From Nitrospirota bacterium (GTDB taxonomy: Bacteria; Nitrospirota; UBA9217), in assembly GCA_963751455.1 (NCBI GenBank), contig CAVVUN010000003.1, positions 374,507 to 438,506 on the forward strand: a stretch of 64,000 nt of DNA, in the 5' to 3' direction. Positions 32-14,525 of this stretch are shown here, piece after piece; within the stretch, counting starts at the first letter, position 1, and the number at the start of each line of letters is the position of its first letter. Under the pieces are notes generated by a model. That model made no database searches. It was not told the DNA's origin and saw nothing but the letters and a program-made list of their open reading frames with translations. Position numbers and translations under genes: made by a program.

Positions 32-1060
32 ATGAGACCGAAGGACGTTATTTTAAAGGCTTTCGAAGGAGGCAAGCCGGACAGACTTCCGGTTACGCTT
101 TTCGGCGCCGGAATGTGGAGCATTAAAGATTGGGGCACCTCGTTTCAAGCTCTTTCACGGGATGCTGACAAAATGACGTCTATGCTCGTGGAAATGGCTC
201 CGAAGCTTCAGTGCGACATGGTATATCCGGGTTCCGGCTACAACAACTTCCACGCATCTGCGCTGGGCGGCAAGATCAAATTCCGCGAGATAGGCGCGCC
301 CGACCTGGAAAACCACTTCGTGTCTTCAGAGGAAGATCTTGCGAAGCTGAATTTGTCCGATCTCGATAAGGATGAGACGATCAACACTGTAAAGAAAGCT
401 CTCCGCCGGACCAAGGCGAAGATTGGTGACACCTATGTGGTAACCATGACTGCCTGGGGCCCGTTTACCCTGGGCGCGCGTCTTGTTGGAGAAGAAACCA
501 TGATGAAGGCGACATTTAAAAAACCCGCCTTTGTCGAGAAGGTAATCAACTTTGCTACCGACCTCCTGATCCATCTGTACGAGCCGATTGTTTCGGACAA
601 AACTCTCGACGTCATAAGCCTTGCCGATCCGACCGCTTCAGGTGACCTCATATCCAAAAAACAGTTCGAGAAATTCGCCGTGCCCTACCTCAAGAAATTC
701 ACGGACTGGGCAAAAGCGAAAGGCGTACATACACTTGTCCATATTTGCGGCAATACGACCGACCGGCTGGATCTTTTTCCGCTTACCGGAGCAAGCTGCA
801 TCAGTCTCGATCATAAGACCGATATAGCAAAGGCAAGGGAAACGCTCCATGGCAAGATGTGCTTCGGTGGAAATGTGGACCCCGTGAAAATCATGCTGAA
901 TGGCACGGTACAGGATGTAGAGAAGGCATGTACGGATATCATAAATGCGACCGGCAGGGACGGTGGTTTCGTTCTTATGCCGGGCTGCGACATTCCGCCG
1001 ACCGTACCCTATGACAACATCAGGAAATTCATCCAGGTGGCTCACGAGACGAAGATGTGA
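32..1060 (+). CDS. MtaA/CmuA-type (URO-D fold) methylcobamide:thiol methyltransferase
   Basis: 342 aa; GPFTL motif, Zn-ligand motif VHICG and C-terminal PGCD, GNVDP; SD agggag upstream. Confidence 0.85.
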   Translation: MRPKDVILKAFEGGKPDRLPVTLFGAGMWSIKDWGTSFQALSRDADKMTSMLVEMAPKLQCDMVYPGSGYNNFHASALGGKIKFREIGAPDLENHFVSSEEDLAKLNLSDLDKDETINTVKKALRRTKAKIGDTYVVTMTAWGPFTLGARLVGEETMMKATFKKPAFVEKVINFATDLLIHLYEPIVSDKTLDVISLADPTASGDLISKKQFEKFAVPYLKKFTDWAKAKGVHTLVHICGNTTDRLDLFPLTGASCISLDHKTDIAKARETLHGKMCFGGNVDPVKIMLNGTVQDVEKACTDIINATGRDGGFVLMPGCDIPPTVPYDNIRKFIQVAHETKM

Positions 1061-1411
1061 TCGTAACCACGGATAAACACAGGTCCGGCTTTGCCGGACA
1101 CACAGATAACAACCATGAGAAAAGAGTAAATGAAACAAAAAATTAGAGCTTGTCGTGTGTGTACTCCAGCGTACCCATTTACTATTTGTTCAATATACTT
1201 ATGCTTATCCGTGCGTTTCGCGAAGCGAAACCCGTGGTTCCAGTTTATAAATATTCCGTGTAAACCGGGTTAGAGGGCATTACAAATCGACAAGGAGGTG
1301 ACAGGCCTTAATCAGAAGTTGAAAGGAGGTCGATTCGTGGGTTTTTTAGAGGAGTTGAAAAAATTGTTTTTCCGGGCGCAAGAAGTGTCCGGGCAAAGGG
1401 AGGCAATAAAA

Positions 1412-1855
1412 ATGGCAGATAAAAAAATGACTTTAGAAGAAGTAAATGAGTACATGAAAAAGCAGTGCGGTTTTGTTCCGCGCATGTTCCAGATCATCAA
1501 CACGGTGACACCGGAACCGGGCAGGACGTTTGCAGACTTCTATGCTAGCATATTTGCCGACGGCGCGCTTTCGCGCAAAGTGAAAGAGCTGATGTTCATG
1601 GCAGGCGGCGTATCATATTGTTCGCCGCGGTGCATCATCCACGTGATCCCCGCCATCAACGCGGGTGCGACCACGGGCGAGATCTTCGAGGCCGCTTCTG
1701 TAGGCATGATCCTGGCAGGCTTCGTGCCGGGAGGCCCCGGCATACCGTACGCTTTCGAGTATGCGCTGAAATGCCTCGACATCGAGGCCAAATACCGGAA
1801 GGGCGAGAAGTGGGAGTATCTTCCTCAGCCCAAGTTCGACCACGGCGTGTTCTAA
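1412..1855 (+). CDS. Carboxymuconolactone decarboxylase/AhpD-like protein
   Basis: GALSRKVKELM...CSPRCIIH...AINAGATTGEIFEA pattern; ATG 1412 after ggagg (ORF is open from 1298). Confidence 0.75.
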   Translation: MADKKMTLEEVNEYMKKQCGFVPRMFQIINTVTPEPGRTFADFYASIFADGALSRKVKELMFMAGGVSYCSPRCIIHVIPAINAGATTGEIFEAASVGMILAGFVPGGPGIPYAFEYALKCLDIEAKYRKGEKWEYLPQPKFDHGVF

Positions 1856-1870
1856 ACTAATATCGACAGC

Positions 1871-1895
1871 GGGGGAGCGTTTCGAAGGCTCCCCC
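1871..1895 (+). terminator. Putative intrinsic terminator
   Basis: gggggagc-gtttcgaag-gctccccc hairpin followed by gttatttt. Confidence 0.55.
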
Positions 1896-1936
1896 GTTAT
1901 TTTGGAATTATCTTTGTTCATAAAAATGGCGTTGTT

Positions 1937-2013
1937 CTCACACAAAGCCACAAAGGCACAAAGAAAACAGGTTGTAATATTTTTTCCTTCGTGTCTCTGT
2001 GCCTTCGTGTGAG
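1937..2013. repeat. Inverted 9-mer array (CACAAAG family), empty copy
   Basis: ctcacacaaagccacaaaggcacaaag ... cttcgtgtctctgtgccttcgtgtgag; related copies at 7680-7797 and 14550-14653. Confidence 0.8.
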
Positions 2014-2051
2014 TCAAAACCGTCCTCGAATTTAGATTAAAGGGGCCAATC

Positions 2052-2999
2052 ATGTTTCGATTTAACAGAGAACAAAAAGTTTTTACCCTTGACGGCATCA
2101 AGATCGGCGGACAGCCGGGTGAAAACCCGCCGCTGCTGATCGCGTCCATGTTTCACAACAAGGACAGGATTTTGACGGACCGGAAGGGCAACTTCGACCG
2201 CGCAAAAGCGGTCGAGTTGATCAGGACTCAGGAAAAGCTTTCCGAGTCTACCGGGATTCCTTCCATGGTCGCCATGGTGGCCAACTCGGCAGAAGAAGCT
2301 AAGATCTACATCGATTTTTACCGCGAGACCACGAAGATGCCCTTCGGCATCGACATGTGGGTGGCAGAAAAAAGAGCGGAGGCAACCGAGTACGTCGCTC
2401 AACTGGGCCTGCAGGACCAGTTTCTGTATAACAGCATCACTCCCTGGGACAAAGACATCAAGGGTCAGGTGCAGAAGCTTAAGGACCTCGGGATCAAGCA
2501 CGTTGTGCTACAGGCCTTTGACGACAAGGACCAGTCTCCGGCCGGCCGCCTGAACTCTCTGGAGAACATCCTGGGACAGGGCGCGGACTGTTTCGAGACT
2601 ATCATAGTTGATACGTCTGTAATGAACCTGCCTGCTACGTCTTTCTCCCTGGTGGCCAACAGGCTGATCAAGGAGAAACTGGGTCTTCCCTGCGGCGGCG
2701 CCTACTCGAACGGGACGCATATGTGGCAAGCGGCGAAAACTATCTGGAGCCTGGACGGGTTCAAGGCGATGGATGCGGTCGCACAGGGCATGGCGTCGGT
2801 CCTGTGGAGCGACTTCAATTTCTACGGCCCGATAGTTACCGCGCCGCGCATTTTCCCCGCAGTAGCTGCCGCGCATATCCTGCTGAGCACGCTCATATAT
2901 CATGAAACACAGACCATGCCCGAAAGTAAAAATCTCCCGATCAAGAAGTACTTCGGGGACTTTCTGGAAAAATTGGAAGCAGGAGCAGCGAGAAAGTAG
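2052..2999 (+). CDS. MtrH-family methyl-corrinoid:pterin (H4folate/H4MPT) methyltransferase
   Basis: N-terminus MFRFNREQKVF..GIKIGGQPGENPPLLIASMF typical of MtrH; YNSI, IVDT, LPCGG..SN, YGPI motifs. Confidence 0.85.
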   Translation: MFRFNREQKVFTLDGIKIGGQPGENPPLLIASMFHNKDRILTDRKGNFDRAKAVELIRTQEKLSESTGIPSMVAMVANSAEEAKIYIDFYRETTKMPFGIDMWVAEKRAEATEYVAQLGLQDQFLYNSITPWDKDIKGQVQKLKDLGIKHVVLQAFDDKDQSPAGRLNSLENILGQGADCFETIIVDTSVMNLPATSFSLVANRLIKEKLGLPCGGAYSNGTHMWQAAKTIWSLDGFKAMDAVAQGMASVLWSDFNFYGPIVTAPRIFPAVAAAHILLSTLIYHETQTMPESKNLPIKKYFGDFLEKLEAGAARK

Positions 3000-3086
3000 C
3001 GCTCTCGCGCTATTTCAAAATGGAAAATGCAAAGTGATAATAAGTCCAATTTGCACTTTGCAATAAGTTATTGAAAAGGAGGATGC

Positions 3087-4115
3087 ATGACCACATTAAG
3101 TGCAAGAGACCGCGTGTTGAAGCTCTTCGCGGGAGAAGAGGTGGACCGGCCGCCGTGCTTCAGCGGCATGGGTAATGTAACCACCGAGGGGTTGAAGTCG
3201 CTCGGTCAGAAGTTCGCGGCCACGCATCTTGACGCAAAAATGATGGCCGCGGCCGCGGCAAGCACATTCAAGCTCTTCGGGTTCGAGTGCGGGGTCTTAC
3301 CGTTCGACCTGTGCATCGAAGCAGAGGCGTTGGGCTGCGAAATCAACGTGTATGCGCACTCTGAGGACCTTCTCTATCCTACCATCAAGAAGAAACTGAT
3401 CCACAACGAGGCTGAGATGGAAATTTCCATCCCTTCCAATATTTCCGAACGCGGCCGGGTCCCGCTGATGAGGGACGCGATCGGGCTCCTCAAGAAGGAC
3501 ATCGGCTCACAAACAGCAATCGGTTCGTACGTTCTGGGGCCTTTCACGCTGGCCGGCCAGGTAATGGAGCTGAACGACCTTCTGAAACTTTCCTTCAAAA
3601 AGCCTGACAAGATCGGCAAGCTCCTTGACCAGCTCTCCGATGTCATTATCCAGGTAGCCGGAGAGTACGAGAAGGCCGGCGTCGATTACATCACCGTGCG
3701 CGAAATGGGAGCGACTTCCGACGTTCTCTCCCCCCGCGTGTTCAAGAGCCTGATCCTGCCGTACCTGAAGAAGATCTTCGACAAGCTTACGGTGCCCAGT
3801 GTGCTGCACATATGCGGCAAAACAAACGATATCGCTCCGTTCATGGTCGAGAGCGGCGCCAGGGCAATAAGCGTGGACCAGAAGAACGACGTAGCTGAAA
3901 CAAGAAAGAAGCTTGGTCCCAAAACGCTTATCTTCGGAAACTATGACCCCTACAACGTGCTGGTTGCGGGCACGCCGGAGCAGGTTCGAGTGACGATCAA
4001 TAAATGCATGGACGACGGTGTAAGCGCCGTGTGGCCGGGATGCGACATCTGGCCTACGGTGCCGGTAGACAATTTCACAACGATGATGGATCAAGTCAGA
4101 AAGTTCAGGAGGTAA
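3087..4115 (+). CDS. Second MtaA/CmuA-type methyltransferase
   Basis: PFDLCIEAEALG, GPFTLA, LHICG and WPGCD motifs; SD aggagg. Confidence 0.88.
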   Translation: MTTLSARDRVLKLFAGEEVDRPPCFSGMGNVTTEGLKSLGQKFAATHLDAKMMAAAAASTFKLFGFECGVLPFDLCIEAEALGCEINVYAHSEDLLYPTIKKKLIHNEAEMEISIPSNISERGRVPLMRDAIGLLKKDIGSQTAIGSYVLGPFTLAGQVMELNDLLKLSFKKPDKIGKLLDQLSDVIIQVAGEYEKAGVDYITVREMGATSDVLSPRVFKSLILPYLKKIFDKLTVPSVLHICGKTNDIAPFMVESGARAISVDQKNDVAETRKKLGPKTLIFGNYDPYNVLVAGTPEQVRVTINKCMDDGVSAVWPGCDIWPTVPVDNFTTMMDQVRKFRR

Positions 4116-4118
4116 TCC

Positions 4119-4811
4119 ATGGCAACGGAAGAGAAGAAGAAGGAGCTTTTGGAGAAACTGCGGAACGCCGTTATCCAGTACGATGAAGATACGTCGAAAG
4201 AGGCCGCTCATGAAGCCCTCAAGGAGGGAATAGAGGCGAACGACGCGATTTTCAACGGCCTCGTCAGCGGTATGGTGGAGGTGGGCAAAATGTTCGAGGC
4301 CCAGGAGTATTTCGTCCCGGAGCTGCTGATGTGCGCCGACGCGCTTTATGCAGGCCTCGACATCCTGAAGCCCCATGTCACGCAGCTCGACCTCGGGGTA
4401 AAGGGGTCGGTCGTAATCGGTACGGTCGAAGGAGACGTCCATGATATCGGCAAGAACATCGTAAAGATGATGTTCGACGTTGCCGGCTTCACGGTCTATG
4501 ACCTTGGCCGCGACGTACCGCTCGATAAGTTCGTTGCCGAACAGATGCGCACTGACTCGGACCTTGTCTGCCTGTCCGCGATGATGACCACGACCATGAC
4601 GGGGATGAAAAAAGTCATCGATGACCTGCGGACCAAGAACCCGAACGTCAAGATCATGATCGGCGGCGCGCCGGTTTCGCAGGATGTGGCCGACAAGTAC
4701 GGCGCGGACGGCTATGCCAAGGATGCGACAAACGCGCTCAAGGACGCCATCAACATGGTTGCGTCCCTGAAGAAAATGAAGGATGAGGTTGAAGCAAAGA
4801 AGGCAAAATGA
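4119..4811 (+). CDS. Methyltransferase corrinoid protein (MtaC/MtbC family)
   Basis: Cap domain EYFVPELL, B12 motif GDVHDIGKNIV, SAMMTTT, IGGAP. Confidence 0.92.
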   Translation: MATEEKKKELLEKLRNAVIQYDEDTSKEAAHEALKEGIEANDAIFNGLVSGMVEVGKMFEAQEYFVPELLMCADALYAGLDILKPHVTQLDLGVKGSVVIGTVEGDVHDIGKNIVKMMFDVAGFTVYDLGRDVPLDKFVAEQMRTDSDLVCLSAMMTTTMTGMKKVIDDLRTKNPNVKIMIGGAPVSQDVADKYGADGYAKDATNALKDAINMVASLKKMKDEVEAKKAK

Positions 4812-5488
4812 AGACCGAGCTCAGAGATGAGTTGCTGAATCAGGGTGCTGCCGTCGTCGGCTTTGCGTGCCTCAAAGGCTACATGAGCGGGGAAATCAGC
4901 CATCTGGAGACGGCTGTATCCATCGGCGTGGATCGGAGATTGAACGAGAACACGCTCAGCCTGCTGATGAAGCTGCAAAAGCGAACTGTCCGAGTTCTCA
5001 AATCCCGTGGATTCCGGACGCTCGCCATACCGCCTGATTCAGACCGCAAAAAAGGCACTTTCATCTCGAAGCTTTATTCGCTCTTTAACCACAAAATGGC
5101 TGCAACCTCCGCGGGCCTGGGTTGGATAGGGAAGAACGGGCTTCTCATCAATCGCGAATTCGGCCCCCGGCTCTCGCTCGTAACAGTGCTGACCGATGCT
5201 GCAATTGATTCGGACATGCCGGTGGAACACTGCTTGTGCGGGGAGTGCAGTCTCTGCGTGCAATACTGTCCATCCCACGCCATCACGGGATCTGAATGGT
5301 CGCGCTCTTCACCCTTCGTGGAACTGGTGCGGCTGAATGCATGCAGAAGTCACAAGGCGACAAAACGGCTGACCGAGGGAAAACCGAATTGCGGTCTCTG
5401 CATCAATATCTGTCCATACGGCAGGAAGGACGATACGGCGACTAAAATAGTTAACCACGGAGACACAGAAGCACGGAGAAGAGATTAA
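4808..5488 (+). CDS. QueG/reductive-dehalogenase-like cobalamin/Fe-S protein
   Basis: HKMAATSAGLGWIGKNGLLI...GPRL, CGECSLCVQYCP and CGLCINICP; ATGA overlap with the corrinoid gene. Confidence 0.75.
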   Translation: MKTELRDELLNQGAAVVGFACLKGYMSGEISHLETAVSIGVDRRLNENTLSLLMKLQKRTVRVLKSRGFRTLAIPPDSDRKKGTFISKLYSLFNHKMAATSAGLGWIGKNGLLINREFGPRLSLVTVLTDAAIDSDMPVEHCLCGECSLCVQYCPSHAITGSEWSRSSPFVELVRLNACRSHKATKRLTEGKPNCGLCINICPYGRKDDTATKIVNHGDTEARRRD

Positions 5489-5628
5489 GTCTCTATCAAT
5501 TAAAGTCTGATATATTGTTGACGCTTCTCCCGGCGTTTCCACCTGCGGCCAGCGTTTAAGAGTGCGAAGCGCGAATGCAGGCTGTGCCTCCGTGGTGAAG
5601 CTTGATTCTTACGTTTTTTGGAGGGTTC

Positions 5629-7614
5629 ATGCTTAAGAAACATAAAGTGATATTCCAGCCTTCGGGCAGGCGCGGTGAGGTGGAGGAAGGCAAAACGATT
5701 CTCCAGGCCGCCCAGTCCCTTGGCGTCGACATTGAAGCGCTCTGCGGCAACAAGAAGGTCTGCGGCAAATGCAAGGTCCGTATCGAAGAGGGCTACTTCG
5801 AGAAGGACAACATCGATTCCGGCATGGCCCACATCTTTCCAGCAGAGCCGTCGCCTGATGAACTGAAGCACATAAAACCGCAGGACGGGCCCGGCATAAG
5901 GCTCGCCTGTCAATGCGAGGTCCGGGGAGACGTCAAGGTGTTCGTTCCCGAACGTTCGCGTGCAGGCAAGCAGGTCGTGCGCAAGGCTGCCAAAGAGCTT
6001 ACGATCAAGATCGACCCCGCGGTAAAAAAGTACAATGTCGAGCTCAAAGCGCCGACACTCCATGAGATGACGACCGGCGATTGGGAGCGGGTTCTCAAGT
6101 TCCTCGAAGAAGATTACGGCCTCAAGGACCTGACGTTCGATTATCTGGTGCTGAAGGGCCTCCAGGACGCTCTGCGCAAAGAAAGCTGGAAAGCGACTGT
6201 TACGGTCTGGATGGACAAGGAAATCGTTAAGGTCGAGCCCGCCTTTGTCGAGCCGAGCTACGGACTTGCTGTTGATATCGGCACCACGACCTGCGTCGGA
6301 TATCTCACGGACCTGAACACGGGCAAGGTCGTGAACACCGAATCCATGATGAACCCGCAGGTGCCCTACGGCGAGGACGTGATGTCGCGCATCACCTACG
6401 CCATGAGCAATCCCGGAGTCGGTCTGGAAACGATGCAAAAGGCGATCATTCAGGGCTTGAACGAAATCATCGAACGCGTGGTGAAGGATATCGCAAAGGA
6501 CGGCCCGAACCCGGGTTACGTAATCGACGACCTTACGATCGTTTTCAATACCGCGATGCATCACATCTTTCTGGGGCTGAACCCCGAGTATATCGGACGC
6601 TCGCCCTTCATCCCCGCGGTCCAGAGCTCGCTCGACATTAAGGCGCGCGATCTCGGTCTCAGGATCAATCCGGCGTCGTACATTCACGTTCTTCCGATTG
6701 AAGCCGGCTTTGTGGGCGCGGACAATGTGGGCGTCTTGATCGCGGAGGAGCCCTACAACCAGGATGAGAATGTGTTGATCATCGACATCGGGACCAACGG
6801 CGAACTTCTCCTGGGCAACCGCAACAGGGTCTGTTCTACGTCCTGCGCGACCGGCCCTGCTTTCGAGGGTGCCCAGATCAAGTTCGGCATGCGGGCTGCT
6901 CCTGGAGCGATCGAAACGGTCGAAATCGATCCGGTAACCAAGGAAGCGCGTTATAAAGTGATCGGAAGGACGGACTGGTCCGTGCCGCATCAGCAGATGA
7001 ACACGAAAGGCCTCTGCGGCTCAGGCATTATCCAGATCGTTGCGGAGATGTTCAAGGCCGGCATCATCGACAAATCCGGCAGGTTCGTAATGGACCTTGG
7101 CACTCCGCGCGTCAGGAAGGACGCCGAGGGCAGGCCCGAATACGTGCTGGCCTGGGCATCCGAGACTTCGATCGGACAGGATGTGACCGTGACCCAGGGC
7201 GACGTGCGCGCTCTCCAGCTTGCAAAAGGCGCCCTCTATACCGGAGCGAAGCTCATGATGAAAAAGCTTGGCATCACGACGCTCGATCGGGTTATCCTTG
7301 CAGGCGCTTTCGGGAGCCATATCGACCGCGAAGCGTCGCTCACGCTCGGTCTGTTTCCGGACTGCAGCCTTGACAAGGTTTACGCGGTCGGCAACGCGGC
7401 AGGCGACGGCTCTCGCATGGCGCTCCTGAATCGCGGCAAACGCAAAGAGGCAAACGATAGGGCACGATGGGTGGAATTCGTGGAGATCGCGACAGACCCC
7501 GCGTTCGAGAAGGAATTCATGATGGCGATGCATATTCCGCACATGAAGGATAAGTTCCCGAACCTGAAAGAGTTGCTCGAAAAATCCAAGAGCGCCGTCG
7601 AGATAAAAGCGTAG
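5629..7614 (+). CDS. ATP-dependent reductive activator of corrinoid proteins (RACo/RACE, ASKHA domain with N-terminal 2Fe-2S)
   Basis: CGNKKVCGKC...RLACQ ferredoxin domain; DIGTTT, DIGTNGE, GPAFEG, GLCGSG, LAGAFG, GNAAGDG motifs. Confidence 0.92.
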   Translation: MLKKHKVIFQPSGRRGEVEEGKTILQAAQSLGVDIEALCGNKKVCGKCKVRIEEGYFEKDNIDSGMAHIFPAEPSPDELKHIKPQDGPGIRLACQCEVRGDVKVFVPERSRAGKQVVRKAAKELTIKIDPAVKKYNVELKAPTLHEMTTGDWERVLKFLEEDYGLKDLTFDYLVLKGLQDALRKESWKATVTVWMDKEIVKVEPAFVEPSYGLAVDIGTTTCVGYLTDLNTGKVVNTESMMNPQVPYGEDVMSRITYAMSNPGVGLETMQKAIIQGLNEIIERVVKDIAKDGPNPGYVIDDLTIVFNTAMHHIFLGLNPEYIGRSPFIPAVQSSLDIKARDLGLRINPASYIHVLPIEAGFVGADNVGVLIAEEPYNQDENVLIIDIGTNGELLLGNRNRVCSTSCATGPAFEGAQIKFGMRAAPGAIETVEIDPVTKEARYKVIGRTDWSVPHQQMNTKGLCGSGIIQIVAEMFKAGIIDKSGRFVMDLGTPRVRKDAEGRPEYVLAWASETSIGQDVTVTQGDVRALQLAKGALYTGAKLMMKKLGITTLDRVILAGAFGSHIDREASLTLGLFPDCSLDKVYAVGNAAGDGSRMALLNRGKRKEANDRARWVEFVEIATDPAFEKEFMMAMHIPHMKDKFPNLKELLEKSKSAVEIKA

Positions 7615-7741
7615 TTCTATTGCGGATTGCGGAATGGAAGCTCATCGGTCATGTTTTTACTCAGTACCGGGATCTAATGTTCACACAAAGCCACAAAGCT
7701 TTCAAAGAATAATAAATCTTAAGTTTTTCTTCGTGTCTCTG

Positions 7742-7783
7742 CCTGCACCCAGCGATTACGAGTGCTTGCGCGAGTGCAGGGTG
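7742..7783 (+). mobile_element. 42-bp CCTGCAC...GTGCAGGGTG element inserted in a 9-mer array
   Basis: Empty site tcgtgtctctg|tgccttcgtgtgag at 1989-2013; here the same sequence is interrupted by 42 bp. Confidence 0.75.
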
Positions 7784-7852
7784 TGCCTTCGTGTGAGTTC
7801 GCTTTTTGCTTTGGGTCTGAGGCGTTGCCTCGTTAATCTCTATGTGAATATC

Positions 7853-8170
7853 ATGACAACGGTAAATATAAATACAGGGGCATGCGGGTATACTGTTACG
7901 ATAACAGCAGAAAAAGCCGCTGACGGCAAGATAAGAATTACCCTGGAAACCGAGTGTGAAATGGTCAAGAAGATGCTCGAGGACATCCAGGTCCTCGACC
8001 GTTTCACGCCCTTCAGCGGGTTTCTGAATAATCCGGTGTTCCAGTCCGCAGCGAAACATCTGAAACACCCTGCCTGTATTGTGCCTGCTGGCATTCTCAA
8101 GGCCGTCGAAGTGGAAGCGGGCTTGAATGTCGCACACGACGCGAGCATCATTTTCGAAAAGCAAAAATAA
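7853..8170 (+). CDS. Small conserved hypothetical protein (DUF6951-like, Cys/His motif)
   Basis: GACGY...ETECE...HPACIVP.GILKAVEVEAGL; start chosen at ATG 7853 because the upstream extension is repeat DNA. Confidence 0.65.
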   Translation: MTTVNINTGACGYTVTITAEKAADGKIRITLETECEMVKKMLEDIQVLDRFTPFSGFLNNPVFQSAAKHLKHPACIVPAGILKAVEVEAGLNVAHDASIIFEKQK

Positions 8171-8305
8171 TTCCCGGACCTGATGATGCGGATCATGCGC
8201 GTTCGGAAGAGCTTTTCAACTCATACCGAAATCGCTGATCATCAGGCTTCCGGTTTTATTAACTAAAGAAAAGAACCCCGGCGTGGTACAATAAAAGAGA
8301 CGATC

Positions 8306-9004
8306 ATGGGGAAAATATTGATACTGGCCGCATACAGTGTCTATGCGGCCTTCTGGGTCCGTTTTTTTTTACATGCGCTCGTCTGGTGGCGCGCACTGCA
8401 CCGGCTTGACGCCGTTGTCTCCGCGCCTCAAGCGTCGCGGTTGAAGGCTTATGCCCTTACCGGCCTGGATGTTCTGTTCCTCGGCAGACTGTTAAAAGTA
8501 AATGCCGCGCTTTGGCTCGGTGAATGGGTATTCCATGTGACCTTTTTTCTGGTCCTTGCGCGTCATCTGAGGTATTTCCTGGATCCGGTCCCGTCTTGGG
8601 TCTGGTCTGTCCAGACACCGGGCTTAGTCGCAGGCTATATTCTGCCGCTCTCATTGGCATACATTCTTCTCGTGCGGATTCTCGGAAAGCGGCAGAAGTA
8701 TGCTTCTCCCGGGAATTTTTTCCTCCTTACGATAGTGCTTATGATCAGCTCCCTCGGCGTTCTCATGAATTTCTACAAACCAAATCTCGTTGACGTAAAA
8801 CTGTTCATTCTCGGGATAATAGGCTTTTCACCGAAGCCTGCTCCTGAAAGCGTTCTGTTCATCATTCATTTTTTACTGTTTCTCGTACTCGTCCCGCTGC
8901 TCCCGACTCATATTTTTACGGCGCCGCTCGTTATGCTCGAGGCGAAAAAACGCGAGCAGGCGCTGCATCTCATAATGCACGATGCAAACGAGGCAGGCCG
9001 CTAA
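8306..9004 (+). CDS. NarI/HdrE-like membrane cytochrome b subunit
   Basis: Five hydrophobic segments; four candidate haem His (FHV, RHLRY, IHF, THIF); adjacent to a CCG-domain gene. Confidence 0.7.
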   Translation: MGKILILAAYSVYAAFWVRFFLHALVWWRALHRLDAVVSAPQASRLKAYALTGLDVLFLGRLLKVNAALWLGEWVFHVTFFLVLARHLRYFLDPVPSWVWSVQTPGLVAGYILPLSLAYILLVRILGKRQKYASPGNFFLLTIVLMISSLGVLMNFYKPNLVDVKLFILGIIGFSPKPAPESVLFIIHFLLFLVLVPLLPTHIFTAPLVMLEAKKREQALHLIMHDANEAGR

Positions 9005-9029
9005 GGAGTAGACTGACGGCCCTTACCAC

Positions 9030-10229
9030 ATGAAGAATATACGTAAATTCACCGAAGAGCTTTCTTCCCTTCAGATCCTCAAGATCGATGCCTGCACTCA
9101 GTGCGGCGAATGTCTCCGGCACTGCCCGGTCCAGGATGTTACCGGGAATCCGATTGTTTCGCCGCCGGAGAAGATCCGAATGTTCCGCGAATTCATCCGG
9201 GCAAGTGAGGGACTGAAAGCGACGCTCTTCGGCCCCCGTGAAGTCGACCGGAAGCTGCTCGAGGACTTCACACGCGCTGTCTATGAATGTACTACCTGCG
9301 GCGCCTGCGGACAGAACTGCCCGGTGGGCATCTTCAGCCAGCGGCTCTGGCCCGTTCTGAGAAAAGAAATGGTGAAGCGGGGCCTCGGTCCGATCGGGGT
9401 CCAGACCGGCATGCCGAAGGCCATAAAGAATTCCGGCAATCCGTACGATAAACCGGCAGCCGAACGCTACAAGCCCTGGCTTCCGGAAAACGTGAACCTC
9501 GCGGAGAGGGCGGATATCGCTTACTATGCCGGTTGTACAGGCGCGTACGAAGCCCAGCCGATGGTGCGGGGCGATGTGCTGGTCCTGAACGCAATCGGAC
9601 AGGATTTCACAATGTTGCCGCCTGAAGAGGAGGTATGCTGCGGCTTTCCGCTGTTCATTACCGGTCAGTATGACCTGCTGAAGGAGCTTATAACAAGACT
9701 CGTTGACGGATACGCGGCAAGAGGGGTCAAAACTCTGGTATGCTCGTGTCCGTGCTGTGTTAATATAATGACCAGAGACTGGCCGCTCTATTATGGTCAG
9801 CAGCTTCCCTTCAGGATCAGGCACATCTCCCAGTTTGTCGTGGAAGCCATAAACAGCGGGAGGCTCCGCTTCAAGCAGTTGAGCGAGTCGGTGATCTACC
9901 ATGACCCCTGTTATCTTTCGCGCGGCGTAGGTGTGATCGAAGAGCCGCGGGCCGTGCTCAGGAGCATCCCGGGTGTAACGCTGCTGGAATTCGAACGTCA
10001 CGGCCTGAATTCACGGTGCTGCGGTTCGGGGGGCGCTGCCCGCAAAGTATATCACGAGAACGCCATTGCGATGGGAAGGTTGACGATCGACGAGGCCGTT
10101 GCCAAAAAAGCGGACCGCCTGATCCTGAGCTGTCCGGCCTGCTACGCCAAGGTAAACGAAGCAATGCACGGATATAAGAACCAGATCCGGATCACGGACA
10201 TCATGGAGCTGGTAAGCGGATTGATTTGA
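9030..10229 (+). CDS. HdrD-like Fe-S oxidoreductase (2x[4Fe-4S] plus two CCG domains)
   Basis: CTQCGECLRHCP, CTTCGACGQNCP, YAGC/VCCG/SCPCC and HDPC/RCCG/SCPAC. Confidence 0.85.
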   Translation: MKNIRKFTEELSSLQILKIDACTQCGECLRHCPVQDVTGNPIVSPPEKIRMFREFIRASEGLKATLFGPREVDRKLLEDFTRAVYECTTCGACGQNCPVGIFSQRLWPVLRKEMVKRGLGPIGVQTGMPKAIKNSGNPYDKPAAERYKPWLPENVNLAERADIAYYAGCTGAYEAQPMVRGDVLVLNAIGQDFTMLPPEEEVCCGFPLFITGQYDLLKELITRLVDGYAARGVKTLVCSCPCCVNIMTRDWPLYYGQQLPFRIRHISQFVVEAINSGRLRFKQLSESVIYHDPCYLSRGVGVIEEPRAVLRSIPGVTLLEFERHGLNSRCCGSGGAARKVYHENAIAMGRLTIDEAVAKKADRLILSCPACYAKVNEAMHGYKNQIRITDIMELVSGLI

Positions 10230-10395
10230 AATTTTGATGCACGGGACACGGATTTGCACGGAAGAGTCGGATTTAAAATCGTTAAATGCATTTATTCTTT
10301 ATGATACTGATGTTTTTACGACTCTTTTAGATATCCTAATCCGGATTTTCCGCTTTTATCCGTGTCCAATTCGTCTTCTGTGACTAAGGTGAATT

Positions 10396-11652
10396 ATGAG
10401 TCATTTTTCCATTAAATGCAGAGCGTGCGGCAAGAAACTTACTAATTCATACTGCGCTTTCTGCGAACACTGCAAAGACGCGCTCCTCGTGACTGATTAT
10501 CAAGACAGCCGCTTTGCTGAGCGGCCGTCCGAAGGCGTCTGGCGCTTTAACTGGCTACCGGTCCACGATAAGGGCTTCGCGCAACCCGGTCCTCTCGTAT
10601 ACCGCTCGGGCGGACTTTCCGGCGTTGTGGGCCTCGAAAACCTCTATATAGCTTTTAACGGCTATTGGCCTGAAAACGGCGCCCTGCTCGAGACCTGTAC
10701 ATTCAAGGAATTCGAGGCAGCAGTGGTTCTTCAGAATGCACGGGAGAACGGGGTCGAGGGTCTGATTGTAGCATCTGCCGGAAACACGGCGCGCGCTTTC
10801 GCTCACCTGTCCGCGCTCACAGGCTTTCCGGTCATCATTGTGGTTCCCCGAATGTGCGTTTCCGAGATGTGGTACGGCGAACCGCGATCGATCGTACACA
10901 CACTCGCAGTCGGAGACGGTGATTACTCGGATTCGATCGATGTTGCAAAGCGGATTGCCATGACGCTCGGCTTTCCCTTTGAAGGCGGAGTAAAAAACAT
11001 CGCGAAACGCGACGGTCTCGGGATCGTTATGATGGAAGCTGTCTCTAAAATCGGCACTTTGCCGGATCATTATGTACAAGCAGTCGGGAGCGGAACCGGC
11101 GCCATAGGCGCGTGGGAGATGGCTGGGCGCTTCGTACGGGACGGCAGGTTCGGCTCCCGGCTGCCGGTCCTTCACTTGGCGCAGAACCTGCCCTTTGCGC
11201 CAATGGTCAACGCGTGGCGAAAGAGCAGCCGTACTCTGTTTCCCGATGATCTGAACCCAGAATTGATTTCGCACATTACAACGCGGGTCCTCTCCACTCG
11301 GTATCCGGCGTACGCGGTAAAGGGCGGCGTCTACGATGCGCTGGTCGCGACCAATGGAAAAATGTACGGCATAGAAAACGACGATGTGTATGCGAGCATG
11401 GACCTGTTCCAGAAAACCGAAGGAATCGACATCGTACCCGCATCGGGTGTGGCTGTTGCCGCGCTGATCAAGGCGGTCAAAACGGGCGCTATCGGGAAGA
11501 AAGAAACGGTCCTTCTGAACATTACCGGCGGGGGCGAAAAACGCCTGCGTCAGGATAAAAAGACCTACTCCGTTGTACCGCACTATATTTCAAAGACGGT
11601 AAGCGAAAAAGAGATCGAGGAGACGCTGTGCAACGTCCTGAAGAAGAACTGA
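10396..11652 (+). CDS. Cysteate synthase (threonine-synthase-like PLP enzyme)
   Basis: FNGYWPE.GA...TCTFKEFEA (PLP Lys), ASAGNTARAF, EGGVKNIAKRDGLG, QAVGSGTG, LLNITGGG; overlaps a sulfopyruvate decarboxylase gene. Confidence 0.85.
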   Translation: MSHFSIKCRACGKKLTNSYCAFCEHCKDALLVTDYQDSRFAERPSEGVWRFNWLPVHDKGFAQPGPLVYRSGGLSGVVGLENLYIAFNGYWPENGALLETCTFKEFEAAVVLQNARENGVEGLIVASAGNTARAFAHLSALTGFPVIIVVPRMCVSEMWYGEPRSIVHTLAVGDGDYSDSIDVAKRIAMTLGFPFEGGVKNIAKRDGLGIVMMEAVSKIGTLPDHYVQAVGSGTGAIGAWEMAGRFVRDGRFGSRLPVLHLAQNLPFAPMVNAWRKSSRTLFPDDLNPELISHITTRVLSTRYPAYAVKGGVYDALVATNGKMYGIENDDVYASMDLFQKTEGIDIVPASGVAVAALIKAVKTGAIGKKETVLLNITGGGEKRLRQDKKTYSVVPHYISKTVSEKEIEETLCNVLKKN

Positions 11653-12860
11653 TTAATATTCTCAAAAAGAACCGGGTTGATTTTACCGCCTCCCTGCCGT
11701 GCGAGAAGATCAAGACGCTTCTTGAAATGCTGCCGACGGCCTTTCAGCATGTTTATCTGACGAGAGAGGAAGAAGGCGTCGGTATCTGCGCGGGCGCCTC
11801 GCTTGCCAATAGACGCCCTGTAATGTTTGTTCAGAGTTCAGGCATCGGAAACATGATCAACGCTTTGCTTTCCCTCACCGCATTCTATCAGTTTCCACTC
11901 GCCCTGTTTGTCAGCCGCCGCGGAGTCTATCAGGAAAAAATAGAGGCGCAGTTGCCCATGGGCCAGAGACTGCCCGGCATACTGTCAGGTGCCGGTATCA
12001 TGTGGACCGAGCTCAATACAATCGATGACTTGAAGAAAGTGGAACAAGAGCTGCAGGAAGTTTACTCGAACAGCAGGATTCATGCGTTTTTGATGAGCCC
12101 GAAGGTGTGGGAGGGGTCAAATTGCGGATCTCGGAGACCTGCACCCAGCGGTGACGAGTGCGAACGCGCGAGTCTCGCACCCAACGCCTTCGAGTGCGAT
12201 TGCGCGAGAGTAGGGTGTGCAGGGCGTTCGGATTGCGGAATGAAAGGCGCAAAAAAAAGTTCTCAATCCGGACCCTGGACCCTGGACCCCGCATCATCAT
12301 CGCCCTCGCTCACCCGCTATGACATTATCAATCTCGCAGCGCCGTACCTCGAGGGCAAAGTCGTGGTAAGCAACCTGGGCTGGCCTTCCAAAGAACTCTT
12401 TTCCGTCAGACACCAACCCTCCAACTTCTACATGCTCGGAAGCATGGGCATGGCAACCCCAATCGGCCTCGGCATTGCTCTGACGTCGAAAAAAAAGGTC
12501 ATCGTGATCGACGGAGACGGAAGCCTCCTCATGAACCCCGGCACGCTTGCCACTGCCGCATCTCTCGCCCCGAGGAATCTAACCATCCTTTGCATTGATA
12601 ACGGCGCTTATGGATCAACCGGTAATCAGCCGACTCTGACAGGAAGCTGTGTCGACTTGGAGCACGTTGCGCGCGGATTCGGTTTTGTGAATACGGTGAA
12701 AGTTGCCGCGGCCGATAAACTCGTGAACGTAATGAAGCAGCCTCCGAAAGAATTAACGTTTATCCATGCCCTTGCAGTGCCCGGCAACAAGGATGTGCCG
12801 AACATCACTACACATCATCTCGAGATCAAGAGACAGGTACAGGGATTTTTGAGAGGGTGA
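11628..12860 (+). CDS. comDE: Sulfopyruvate decarboxylase, fused alpha-beta
   Basis: Alpha: SLPCE, TREEEGVGICAGA, QSSGIGNMINAL; beta: NFYMLGSMG, ThDP motif DGDGSLLMN...DNGAYGSTGNQ. Confidence 0.85.
   Translation: MQRPEEELINILKKNRVDFTASLPCEKIKTLLEMLPTAFQHVYLTREEEGVGICAGASLANRRPVMFVQSSGIGNMINALLSLTAFYQFPLALFVSRRGVYQEKIEAQLPMGQRLPGILSGAGIMWTELNTIDDLKKVEQELQEVYSNSRIHAFLMSPKVWEGSNCGSRRPAPSGDECERASLAPNAFECDCARVGCAGRSDCGMKGAKKSSQSGPWTLDPASSSPSLTRYDIINLAAPYLEGKVVVSNLGWPSKELFSVRHQPSNFYMLGSMGMATPIGLGIALTSKKKVIVIDGDGSLLMNPGTLATAASLAPRNLTILCIDNGAYGSTGNQPTLTGSCVDLEHVARGFGFVNTVKVAAADKLVNVMKQPPKELTFIHALAVPGNKDVPNITTHHLEIKRQVQGFLRG
12137..12226 (+). mobile_element. Two nested 45-bp CCTGCAC-family elements in-frame within the ComD-ComE linker
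   Basis: Outer acctgcacccagcg...cgcgcgag|tgcagggcg is interrupted at 12173-12217 by tctcgcacccaacg...gagtagggtg. Confidence 0.65.
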
Positions 12861-13943: not shown

Positions 13944-14525
13944 TTATAACTTCCCCGTCTTCTGATACTCCTGCACATAAACCTTGATGGCACGCAGTAT
14001 AATCCAGTCCAGGGTCACGCTGTTATCGGATGCGATTTGAACGAGGGCGTCGATGGTCTCTTTGTCGATGGTGGGTTGAACTGTTGAGGATGATTCCTCG
14101 GAAGAAGAGGGCGCCACTGCTTCCGGGCTCTCGACTGCGGCTTCGGGATTTCGTTTTTGATGCTCCTTACGAAGAAGTCCCATCAAACTCTGCACGTCGC
14201 CGCCCATGATCGCTTGCCGCACATCTTCGGGAACTTCAATAGGCTTCTCATCCGGCTGTTGACGGGGCTCTCCTATCTTTGCTTCAGGCGACTTCATCCC
14301 CGGACCGATGCCGGGCATCATTCCGGTCATGCCCATCATCATACTTGCCAGGTTCCGGGCGTATTCGTTATCAGGCATCTCATCTTTCAGGAATTGGTCC
14401 AGCTTTCCTTCTGCCGCAGCCTGTGCCATGCGGTCTGCAAGGAGTGATCCCTGTTCCTCTTCCTGCTCAAAATTATTCTTTCTTCCGAAGGCCTTGTTCG
14501 GCGGCTTGGGTAACGGTTTGTCCAT
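13944..14525 (-). CDS. Hypothetical protein, possible C-terminal ribbon-helix-helix
   Basis: 193 aa ORF, SD aagg; C-terminus IDKETIDAL...VTLDWIILRAIKVYV. Confidence 0.6.
   Translation of the reverse strand: MDKPLPKPPNKAFGRKNNFEQEEEQGSLLADRMAQAAAEGKLDQFLKDEMPDNEYARNLASMMMGMTGMMPGIGPGMKSPEAKIGEPRQQPDEKPIEVPEDVRQAIMGGDVQSLMGLLRKEHQKRNPEAAVESPEAVAPSSSEESSSTVQPTIDKETIDALVQIASDNSVTLDWIILRAIKVYVQEYQKTGKL

Follow-up and report, generated by a model that had tools for sequence, protein, structure and literature searches.

Archaeal-type coenzyme M genes linked to a corrinoid methyltransferase module in Nitrospirota

Introduction

In the literature cited here, coenzyme M (CoM) has two uses, one with the alkyl-CoM reductases of archaea and one in the alkene metabolism of bacteria. 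What use, then, would a Nitrospirota bacterium have for the archaeal genes of CoM synthesis, and why do they lie beside methyltransferases? The question is raised by a stretch of 64,000 nucleotides, here called the window, from assembly GCA_963751455.1 (contig CAVVUN010000003.1, positions 374,507 to 438,506; G000:C3:374507-438506). It begins with a block of twelve genes (positions 32-12860) that joins a cysteate synthase (cs) and a sulfopyruvate decarboxylase (ComDE) to two MtaA-type zinc methyltransferases, an MtrH-family enzyme, a corrinoid protein with its activator and an HdrD-like protein. This operon is real, native to its host, widely conserved and apparently undescribed; its product, substrate and direction are proposed below from gene families and their linkage. 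On the best reading, the block is an inducible module that shuttles methyl groups between methyl-sulfur compounds and tetrahydrofolate (H4folate).

The evidence is genomic throughout. Several cited papers were available in part, and statements resting on them apply to those parts. Loci and genomes are cited by handles beginning with L and G. No description of the operon was found in the searched literature, whose coverage leaves out most subscription papers and supplements. The main texts of two Nitrospirota genome surveys (PMC11033732, PMC13657043) mention neither coenzyme M nor methyltransferase nor cysteate, and the accessible part of PMC9457059 gives bacterial CoM synthesis in print as an unrelated route from phosphoenolpyruvate.

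The operon and its host genome

The host genome comprises 5.7 Mb on 15 contigs and is rated 100% complete and 5.4% contaminated. An earlier sequence-only reading of the window had described twelve co-oriented genes, and all twelve are present, open, free of frameshifts and on the plus strand. Genes were labeled by family-profile scans, with scores given here as bits against the curated cut-off. The scans agree with the labels of the nine genes that had been named, HdrE being qualified below; the three left out were those for a small CMD protein, a QueG-like protein and a DUF6951 protein.

The block had also been described as contiguous with bacterial dnaA, gyr and rpmH. DnaA and GyrB are indeed encoded on the same contig, both above their family cut-offs, together with an rpmH-like open reading frame (ORF) labeled by eye. 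Four spacers of the operon carry repeats that recur in the genome, one of them with 90 blastn matches (itself included) on 12 of the 15 contigs. The claim of shared intergenic repeats therefore holds genome-wide and is not borne out for the dnaA region itself, since the spacers have no further match in the rest of the window at E<=1e-4. Third-position GC content (GC3) is 0.61-0.76 in the operon versus 0.66-0.69 in housekeeping genes. Because its spacer repeats are genome-wide and its GC3 resembles that of housekeeping genes, the block is considered native; these features and the same gene order in relatives rule out a chimeric or contaminating contig.

Elsewhere the genome encodes Dsr and Wood-Ljungdahl functions (dsrAB, dsrMK, AcsC, Fhs and an AcsE-like ORF), the latter having been named as something to look for, as well as FolD and MetF. 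A scan of the host genome, with the completeness and contamination given above, returned no match for McrA (PF02249), in keeping with the earlier remark that no Mcr was in view, and none for MttB. A check for methylthio-alkane reductase found four PF00148 matches (297-435 bits), all in one nif-like cluster.

Cysteate synthase and ComDE

The gene at 10396-11652 (plus strand) encodes a cysteate synthase of the MA3297 type, scoring 483 bits against the TIGR03844 cut-off of 325 (324.9) and 89 bits with the best threonine synthase (ThrC) model. In a 17-row tree it splits from ThrC with 100/100 support, and the Nitrospirota enzymes are sister to three archaeal ones (93/94). The host has a separate ThrC, so that a displaced ThrC can be ruled out on all three counts. 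The protein is a cysteate synthase by family, and activity on phosphoserine and sulfite is predicted.

The next gene (11628-12860, plus strand), overlapping the synthase gene by 25 nucleotides, encodes a fused ComDE. The window copy passes the alpha model (185 versus 148) and falls just under the beta cut-off (214 versus 221.5), while three of three orthologs tested pass both. Its score as phosphonopyruvate decarboxylase (Ppd) is far too low (203 versus 312), and a 39-row tree sets it apart from ten proteins above the Ppd cut-off (100/100) and on the same side as the enzymes of Methanohalobium and ANME-1. Identity as Ppd is thus ruled out, and the two groupings named beforehand as hazards, with ThrC and with Ppd, are both absent. 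Since the backbone within the ComDE tree is not resolved, no donor can be named. The linker between the ComD and ComE parts (12111-12320) includes one copy, in frame, of a palindromic repeat that occurs 48 times, itself included, on 10 contigs, and measures 66 amino acids in the window versus 24-49 in 50 orthologs.

Related genes occur in other settings. Streptomyces plasmids carry a cysteate synthase (43% identity) inside a peptide-synthetase cluster with dpgABC (L251:4980-6281). Desulfurobacterium, with named species among its carriers, and a Heimdallarchaeota bin have fused ComDE proteins on the same side of the tree (P0157, P0165, P0132). In the archaeal bins L050 and L074, cs-comDE is divergent from a row of hdrC-hdrB-hdrA and an MMP16-like gene, the hdr labels being given by eye, which means that Hdr genes flank cs-comDE in archaea too.

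Conservation of the linkage in Nitrospirota

Conservation was assessed in the best 80 loci encoding a synthase relative and in 201 sampled Nitrospirota genomes. By title, 74 of the loci belong to Nitrospirota or a group within it, one to an unlabeled bin, two to bacteria with other labels and three to archaea, and no record among the 80 bears the title of a cultured isolate. Of the two oddly labeled loci, L039 nests among Nitrospirota in trees and L010 has the same gene order at 79% identity. A search for synthase homologs gave, among the matches listed, only relatives of 76-100% identity and shows nothing on the range beyond the phylum.

Among the 77 bacterial loci, ComDE directly follows the synthase in 70 of the 72 long enough to judge, an HdrD ortholog lies within 3 kb upstream in 64 of 69, and the methyltransferase genes are in place in 46 of 50. 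The expectation that the CoM genes would stay linked to the methyltransferases in relatives is thus borne out. A lone bacterial cysteate synthase is not diagnostic, and it is therefore the pairing with ComDE that points to the CoM route. In genome G148 the operon is split and its parts are still in the genome.

The synthase is found in 41 of the 201 genomes (39 above the cut-off), including 31 of 53 in the host's own family. The operon's MtrH occurs in 45 genomes, among them all 41 synthase carriers, and an HdrD ortholog in 39 of the 41. In two of the four MtrH-only genomes (G032, G161) contigs end inside the operon, and in the others (G029, G036) different genes lie downstream. These figures are counts rather than a test, because kin are not independent. 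They mean that the two signature genes of the archaeal route are present in about one fifth of the sampled Nitrospirota, always with the methyltransferase module and without the known last enzyme. Annotation pipelines that count cs, comDE, mtaA or hdrD as methanogen markers would misread such genomes.

dsrB and AcsB are each present in 39 of the 41 carriers. Because kin without the synthase also have them (21 and 23 of 24, respectively), the operon is an accessory on a Dsr and Wood-Ljungdahl background.

The loci of G029 and G036 (L107, L108) have features of their own: downstream of the methyltransferase half come genes for a radical SAM protein, a SAM methyltransferase and a B12 radical SAM protein, and a divergent second HdrD/cytochrome b pair lies upstream. 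Both genomes have a split MetH and give no MesB-like or SelA match.

Methyltransferases and corrinoid protein

The first gene of the block encodes MtaA1 (32-1060, plus strand), a zinc S-methyltransferase of the UroD family with the His-Cys-Cys site (H237, C239 and a C-terminal cysteine). It passes no cut-off of an MtaA-type family (PRK06252, 175 versus 244) and, in a tree that holds no MtsA, MtpA, Mlp or Mec sequences, forms a divergent clade apart from MtaA and MtbA. It is the candidate enzyme of the substrate side. MtaA2 (3087-4115, plus strand) exceeds the PRK06252 cut-off (261 versus 244), has 4AY7 as its best match in the PDB (E 2e-42) and is the leading candidate for the methylcobamide:CoM step. 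The two HxC...C zinc enzymes recognized earlier are confirmed by their orthologs, with the HxCG motif in 22/22 MtaA1 and 57/57 MtaA2 proteins and the C-terminal cysteine motif in 22/22 and 56/57. Such a His-Cys-Cys zinc site is described as typical of sulfur and selenium transferases in the accessible part of PMC10418091. A third MtaA-type paralog in the host genome (L088:9393-10418, on G000:C15) groups with MtaA1; in L008/L121 the orthologous gene is found 2.6 kb beyond comDE.

Between the two MtaA enzymes lies a methyl-corrinoid:pterin methyltransferase of the MtrH/MtgA family (2052-2999, plus strand; NF002142, 326 versus 287). It matches solved MtrH chains and a methylcorrinoid:tetrahydrofolate methyltransferase, and shows no similarity to the genome's separate AcsE-like ORF. 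The single corrinoid protein (4119-4811, plus strand) has the B12-binding domains PF02310 and PF02607 and scores 204 against a cut-off of 215 with TIGR02370. It is followed by a protein with two [4Fe-4S] clusters resembling QueG and reductive dehalogenases (4808-5488, plus strand; PF13484), whose scores with both models are weak and far below the cut-offs, and by RACo (5632-7614, plus strand), the ATP-dependent reductive activator of corrinoid proteins, with Fer2 and the RACo linker, middle and C-terminal domains.

In 10 of 13 Methanosarcinaceae genomes, the best match of the corrinoid protein is the corrinoid domain of fused proteins of 630-670 amino acids, which we take to be of the methylsulfide-related MtsD/F/H type. 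That lead is not upheld, as the Nitrospirota clade does not group with the fused proteins in the corrinoid tree.

The block contains no substrate-specific first methyltransferase of the MtaB/MttB type, and a soluble system would have to work uphill to bring a thioether methyl onto a pterin; for these two reasons substrate and direction are inferred only. The earlier proposal that methyl-sulfur methyls pass via the corrinoid protein to H4folate stays conditional in its direction and substrate.

Could the methyl half be a split methionine synthase or a methionine salvage system, with MtrH loading the corrinoid protein and an MtaA-type enzyme methylating homocysteine? The homocysteine-binding domain of MetH is found in just one of the 41 carriers, and the host genome has neither a MetH domain nor a PF01717 match, as this proposal would have it. 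PF01717, however, misses most MesB-like proteins here, and a MesB-like core methionine synthase is found in 39 of 41 carriers and 20 of 24 negatives, the host copy being frameshifted with its His-Cys-Cys residues kept. The MesB label is presumptive and draws on background for the family, on a weak PF01717 match and on the accessible part of PMC7857596. With a MesB-like gene in hand, the proposal is not needed; it also leaves the sulfonate and Hdr genes unexplained, and its chance of being right is very slight.

Redox pair and small proteins

The HdrD-like protein (9030-10229, plus strand) has two ferredoxin motifs and two complete CCG domains. It is co-linear with, and 38% identical over 395 amino acids to, a Methanohalobium HdrD-like protein (L122; E 2e-103), compared with 24-29% for other CCG proteins, and the cluster cysteines are invariant in an alignment that includes L122. 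The latter is taken as HdrD from its gene pair and host, and no HdrD-specific model was returned. The HdrD half of the HdrE/HdrD pair read from the sequence stands on this full-length similarity. The HdrE half does not: the neighboring membrane subunit (8306-9004, plus strand; NF038037, 59 bits) is DsrM/NarI-like and resembles methanogen HdrE weakly (profile E 2e-4). It is a predicted dihaem cytochrome b in the place of HdrE, with H77, H87 and H188 in 59/59 and H202 in 57/59 aligned rows. NarI-family partners of HdrD come in two interchangeable types, of which the second is closer to HdrE (E 1e-16) and is found in 9 of the 77 bacterial loci. Since the genome's own DsrM was probably among the sequences behind the window-type profile, the DsrM score of that profile is inflated and was not used.

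The small CMD protein with an AhpD-type fold (1412-1855, plus strand, with a longer start possible near 1337; PF02627) is the most conserved gene product of the block, at 92-98% across 80 loci. In its SPRCxxH motif, C74 and H77 are invariant (16/16) while C70 is variable. Its model is nearest to lpg0406 and TM1620, neither at E<=0.001, and fold and Atlas searches led no further than AhpD/CMD relatives or unnamed clusters. Speculatively, its single cysteine might act as the second thiol for HdrD. The DUF6951 protein (7853-8170, plus strand; PF22263) follows RACo in nearly all loci and is present in 61 of 80.

These proteins invite a protective role, in which CoM would act as a redox buffer and methyl sink against methylating or metal(loid) species and would rescue the corrinoid, HdrD/cytochrome b and the AhpD-like protein keeping it reduced. 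CoM guards Methanosarcina acetivorans against peroxide (PMC12713407, in the part available), the Type 1 mlp clusters were proposed as methyl-selenide recyclers (PMC10418091, likewise), the CMD protein has the AhpD-type fold, and OsmC- and DsrE-like genes accompany some loci. On the other hand, the CMD protein lacks a second cysteine, and MtrH and the MetF and FolD genes described below are left unexplained. Nor is there a link to selenium, since SelA does not discriminate the carriers (37/41) from kin without the synthase (21/24), and G029 and G036 have the methyltransferases without SelA. A protective thiol is accordingly judged improbable.

Regulation and accessory genes

The cluster had been expected to continue to the left of the window. 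It does: a thirteenth gene, a receiver-like ORF of 107 amino acids, ends one base before the window (position -1), and a sigma-54-type site with one mismatch lies upstream of it at -353. Such a motif occurs in 9 of 18 upstream regions versus a background of 0.3%, and three of the misses are too short to reach the usual position. Further left are a divergent CobW-type GTPase, a PAS/GAF histidine kinase with a sigma-54 regulator, and a divergent binding protein resembling NMT1/SsuA; these upstream genes of the host locus recur in related loci. Eight of 77 loci have an inserted chemoreceptor gene. The operon of G148 contains an importer whose binding protein exceeds the SsuA-family cut-off (205 versus 163.5), with orthologs in L036 and L037. 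It may take up CoM as a cofactor or methyl-CoM as a substrate.

FolD is encoded inside the operon in 10 of 80 loci, and MetF directly upstream in four of the genome stretches compared and in 9 of 36 metagenome loci over 7 kb. These positions tie the operon to the folate methyl branch.

Close to the end of the block, a gene on the minus strand (13944-14525) encodes a conserved, probably accessory protein of 193 amino acids that is present in 26 of the 77 bacterial loci. It belongs to no Pfam family and has weak ribbon-helix-helix leads (Atlas 0.87).

A proposed methyl-sulfur shuttle

How might these parts work together? Synthesis would begin with cysteate synthase, joining phosphoserine and sulfite to cysteate, which a general aminotransferase, not pinned to one candidate, would convert to sulfopyruvate. 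ComDE would then yield sulfoacetaldehyde. Reductive thiolation to CoM would have to proceed without ComF, through the cell's own sulfide or another enzyme, and is the weakest step. A sulfide-producing host could supply the sulfur for the CoM thiol. A DsrE-like gene lies between the synthase and comDE in L042 and near them in L039 and L055, which hints at a sulfur relay in these few loci. In the portion of PMC12068725 available, M. acetivorans without cs or comDE is a CoM auxotroph, MMP16 is the main enzyme of the last step, ComF-less M. acetivorans grows when given sulfide, and a reaction between sulfide and sulfoacetaldehyde that needs no catalyst is cited.

In the methyl half, MtaA1 may carry a methyl from a methyl-thioether or from methanethiol onto the RACo-activated corrinoid protein. 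MtrH would deliver it to H4folate, where it could be oxidized or used for acetyl-CoA synthesis, and MtaA2 might park it on CoM as a reversible buffer, so that a single corrinoid protein would connect H4folate, CoM and a second sulfur compound as the three nodes of methyl flow. HdrD and its cytochrome b may carry electrons between a thiol/disulfide pool and the membrane quinone without any known coenzyme B (CoB), the CMD cysteine perhaps standing in as the second thiol.

That a CoM-type thiol is made and methylated is considered probable. The fuller proposal, in which the operon makes CoM or a close sulfonate thiol as the partner of a B12 methyl shuttle to H4folate, feeding methyl-sulfur methyls into the Wood-Ljungdahl pathway, is favored at a little under even confidence, and slightly less so when every step and the direction are taken as a whole. 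Uptake is the preferred direction because of the sensor kinase, the sigma-54 site, the inserted chemoreceptor and the importer. The operon would then provide specific candidate enzymes for anaerobic turnover of methanethiol and dimethyl sulfide by sulfate reducers, whose enzymology is not known to be settled.

A number of observations weigh against this proposal. A COG1900 protein, be it ComF (MMP16) or its proposed back-up L-ASST, is found in none of 61 Nitrospirota genomes, 41 of them carriers, in a search whose control gave matches in 3/14, and the MMP16 of L061 gives no tblastn match in the host genome; in contrast, an MMP16-like gene adjoins the cs-comDE pair in all three archaeal loci (confirmed by scan in L061). 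The host has class I/II aminotransferases, of which none of four candidates scanned passes the aspartate aminotransferase (AspAT) model. AspAT motif searches were likewise without a match. On the methyl side, MtaA2 lies below the MtaA and MtbA equivalog cut-offs and its position as sister to Methanosarcinaceae MtaA and MtbA has moderate support (83/91), the corrinoid tree indicates no substrate, and the presence of a single corrinoid protein would make methyl-CoM a side branch, a non-obligatory intermediate. The HdrD tree has long branches and does not resolve kinship with methanogen HdrD. hdrED is missing in L008, L171 and L194, where DUF6951 is joined directly to the synthase, and because of these three loci the pair cannot always be needed; the idea that HdrED is the missing CoM synthase is weakened for the same reason. 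Finally, G029 and G036 retain the methyltransferase half without a detectable synthase.

Because ComF is missing and no AspAT ortholog was pinned down, the family evidence reaches sulfoacetaldehyde, and CoM as the product is inferred only. The earlier claim that this organism makes CoM or a similar thiol is thus upheld for the two enzyme families and left unsecured for CoM itself. Sulfoacetaldehyde might instead lead to isethionate, taurine, a methylated sulfonate or a new thiol, with the methyltransferases acting on that or another thiol. The lack of ComF suits this alternative, as do other uses of bacterial cysteate synthases, such as the Streptomyces peptide-synthetase cluster and a sulfonolipid synthesis that begins with phosphoserine (according to the partial source available), and the occurrence of a fused ComDE in Desulfurobacterium. 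Yet no gene for a reductase, taurine aminotransferase or acyltransferase recurs in the clustered loci (sulfoacetaldehyde reductases and isethionate lyase were not searched for), and the neighbors that are kept belong to the two best-characterized CoM-using families, the MtaA and HdrD types. The known desulfonating fate was not found, as none of the 41 carrier genomes has Xsc above the cut-off; candidates in 34 of them score 338-369 bits against 676 and are read as acetolactate synthase. A sulfonate other than CoM is judged quite unlikely.

The main rival to the uptake reading keeps the same genes and reverses the flow downhill. Methyl-H4folate from the Wood-Ljungdahl pathway would load the corrinoid protein, which would methylate CoM and sulfide or methanethiol, and methyl sulfides would be released as an electron or sulfide sink. 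This direction is thermodynamically easy for a soluble system, and the MetF and FolD copies would serve it equally well. The best matches to fused corrinoid proteins, presumably of the Mts type, also suit it, although the corrinoid tree does not join the Nitrospirota clade to them. One MtaA-like enzyme from a clostridium accepts selenide and, at a slower rate, sulfide for methylation (PMC10418091, in the part available). The sensor kinase, chemoreceptor and importer suit scavenging better, and the block has no energy-conserving Mtr-type methyltransferase subunits, for which no genome-wide search was made. Net methylation of sulfur is held to be unlikely.

A more specific form of the uptake reading would have Nitrospirota with Dsr and Wood-Ljungdahl pathways run a CoM cycle free of Mcr and CoB, built by the archaeal route with a new last step. 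Methyl groups would be exchanged between H4folate and methyl sulfides of the environment (or methyl-CoM lost from methanogens), and HdrD, with a protein cysteine as second thiol, would couple the pool to quinone. This form is regarded as doubtful. If it is true, CoM would for the first time be seen to serve anaerobic bacteria as a methyl carrier, and there would be a candidate mechanism by which sulfate reducers turn over methyl sulfides. Any production of CoM here would mean a third way to finish the molecule. It would also mean that bacteria in soils, peat and aquifers run a methyl chemistry that either competes with methanogens or lives off them.

Comparison with known systems

The block works like a methylotrophic CoM methyltransferase system combined with a type 2 CoM pathway, yet it departs in a defining feature from each family compared here, with no ComF, no Mcr, an internal folate methylase and a non-orthologous membrane subunit. 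The type 2 (phosphoserine) pathway of Methanosarcinales and Methanomicrobiales (MA3297, MA3298, MA3299; PMC12068725 and PMC12713407, as far as accessible) shares the adjacent cs and fused ComDE genes of the same families, and in both cases the aminotransferase lies outside the cluster. Here the host is bacterial, COG1900 is absent (0/61), the host genome has no McrA, and the genes are joined to methyltransferase and HdrD-like genes. Methylotrophic methanogens, with MtaA, MtbA or MtsA and HdrDE, have in common with the block the His-Cys-Cys zinc enzymes, the corrinoid protein, a reductive activator and a full-length HdrD homolog with a cytochrome b partner. Differences include the lack of an MtaB/MttB-type enzyme in the block, the soluble MtrH-like protein in the operon, the bacterial RACo, the absence of Mcr to consume methyl-CoM, and a membrane subunit that is DsrM-like in most loci.

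Type 1 mlp clusters (Kountz and Balskus, PMC10418091, in the part available) are also co-oriented, occur in anaerobes and encode two MtaA-like enzymes with the sulfur/selenium-type zinc site, a corrinoid protein and RACo. Their definition bars a folate methylase within 20 kb, whereas here MtrH (2052-2999) lies between both MtaA enzymes. The main text of that paper leaves Nitrospir*, cysteate, ComDE, Hdr and MtrH unmentioned. The XcbA-E pathway of alkene oxidisers shares the presence of CoM in a bacterium; as described in the accessible part of PMC9457059, it starts from phosphoenolpyruvate, uses unrelated enzymes and serves epoxide metabolism, and none of its genes is in the block.

Halomethanes had been suggested as a methyl source, for which nothing specific was found. 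The question is sharpened by the mec cassette for dichloromethane, compared by its parts list alone: like the operon, it has a sensor kinase and regulator, MtaA/CmuA-type and MtrH-type enzymes, a corrinoid protein and an activator (10.1101/2021.08.30.458270, in the part available). A mec/cmu-like cassette with CoM accepting the C1 unit could account for these shared parts. As described there, mec has no sulfonate-synthesis or Hdr genes and occurs in other hosts, and homologs above 35% identity are reported from no public genomes except three Dehalobacter strains, without mention of Nitrospir* in that part. The cation antiporter gene is absent from the block, and both MtaA enzymes keep the His-Cys-Cys site described for sulfur and selenium transferases. 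A halomethane cassette is very unlikely on this evidence. MecC reportedly uses CoM as an acceptor in vitro, which could bear on novelty.

Further observations on the host genome

Three genes are frameshifted in the assembly, probably through sequencing indels: the MesB-like gene (G000:C11:7870-8890), dsrA (C2:327010-328180) and metF (C8:146171-147042). The hemE region occurs twice with small differences (G000:C12:17575-23564 and C2:30026-34876), consistent with the 5.4% contamination. At 13-18 kb left of the window lie a reverse-transcriptase ORF of the group II intron type (L001:5478-6842) and integrase-like pieces with small toxin-antitoxin-like genes (L001:1-3600), all labeled by eye. An OsmC-like and DsrE-like pair, which flanks the operon in some relatives, is found in the host beside another GAF-type sensor gene (G000:C15:735087-737807).

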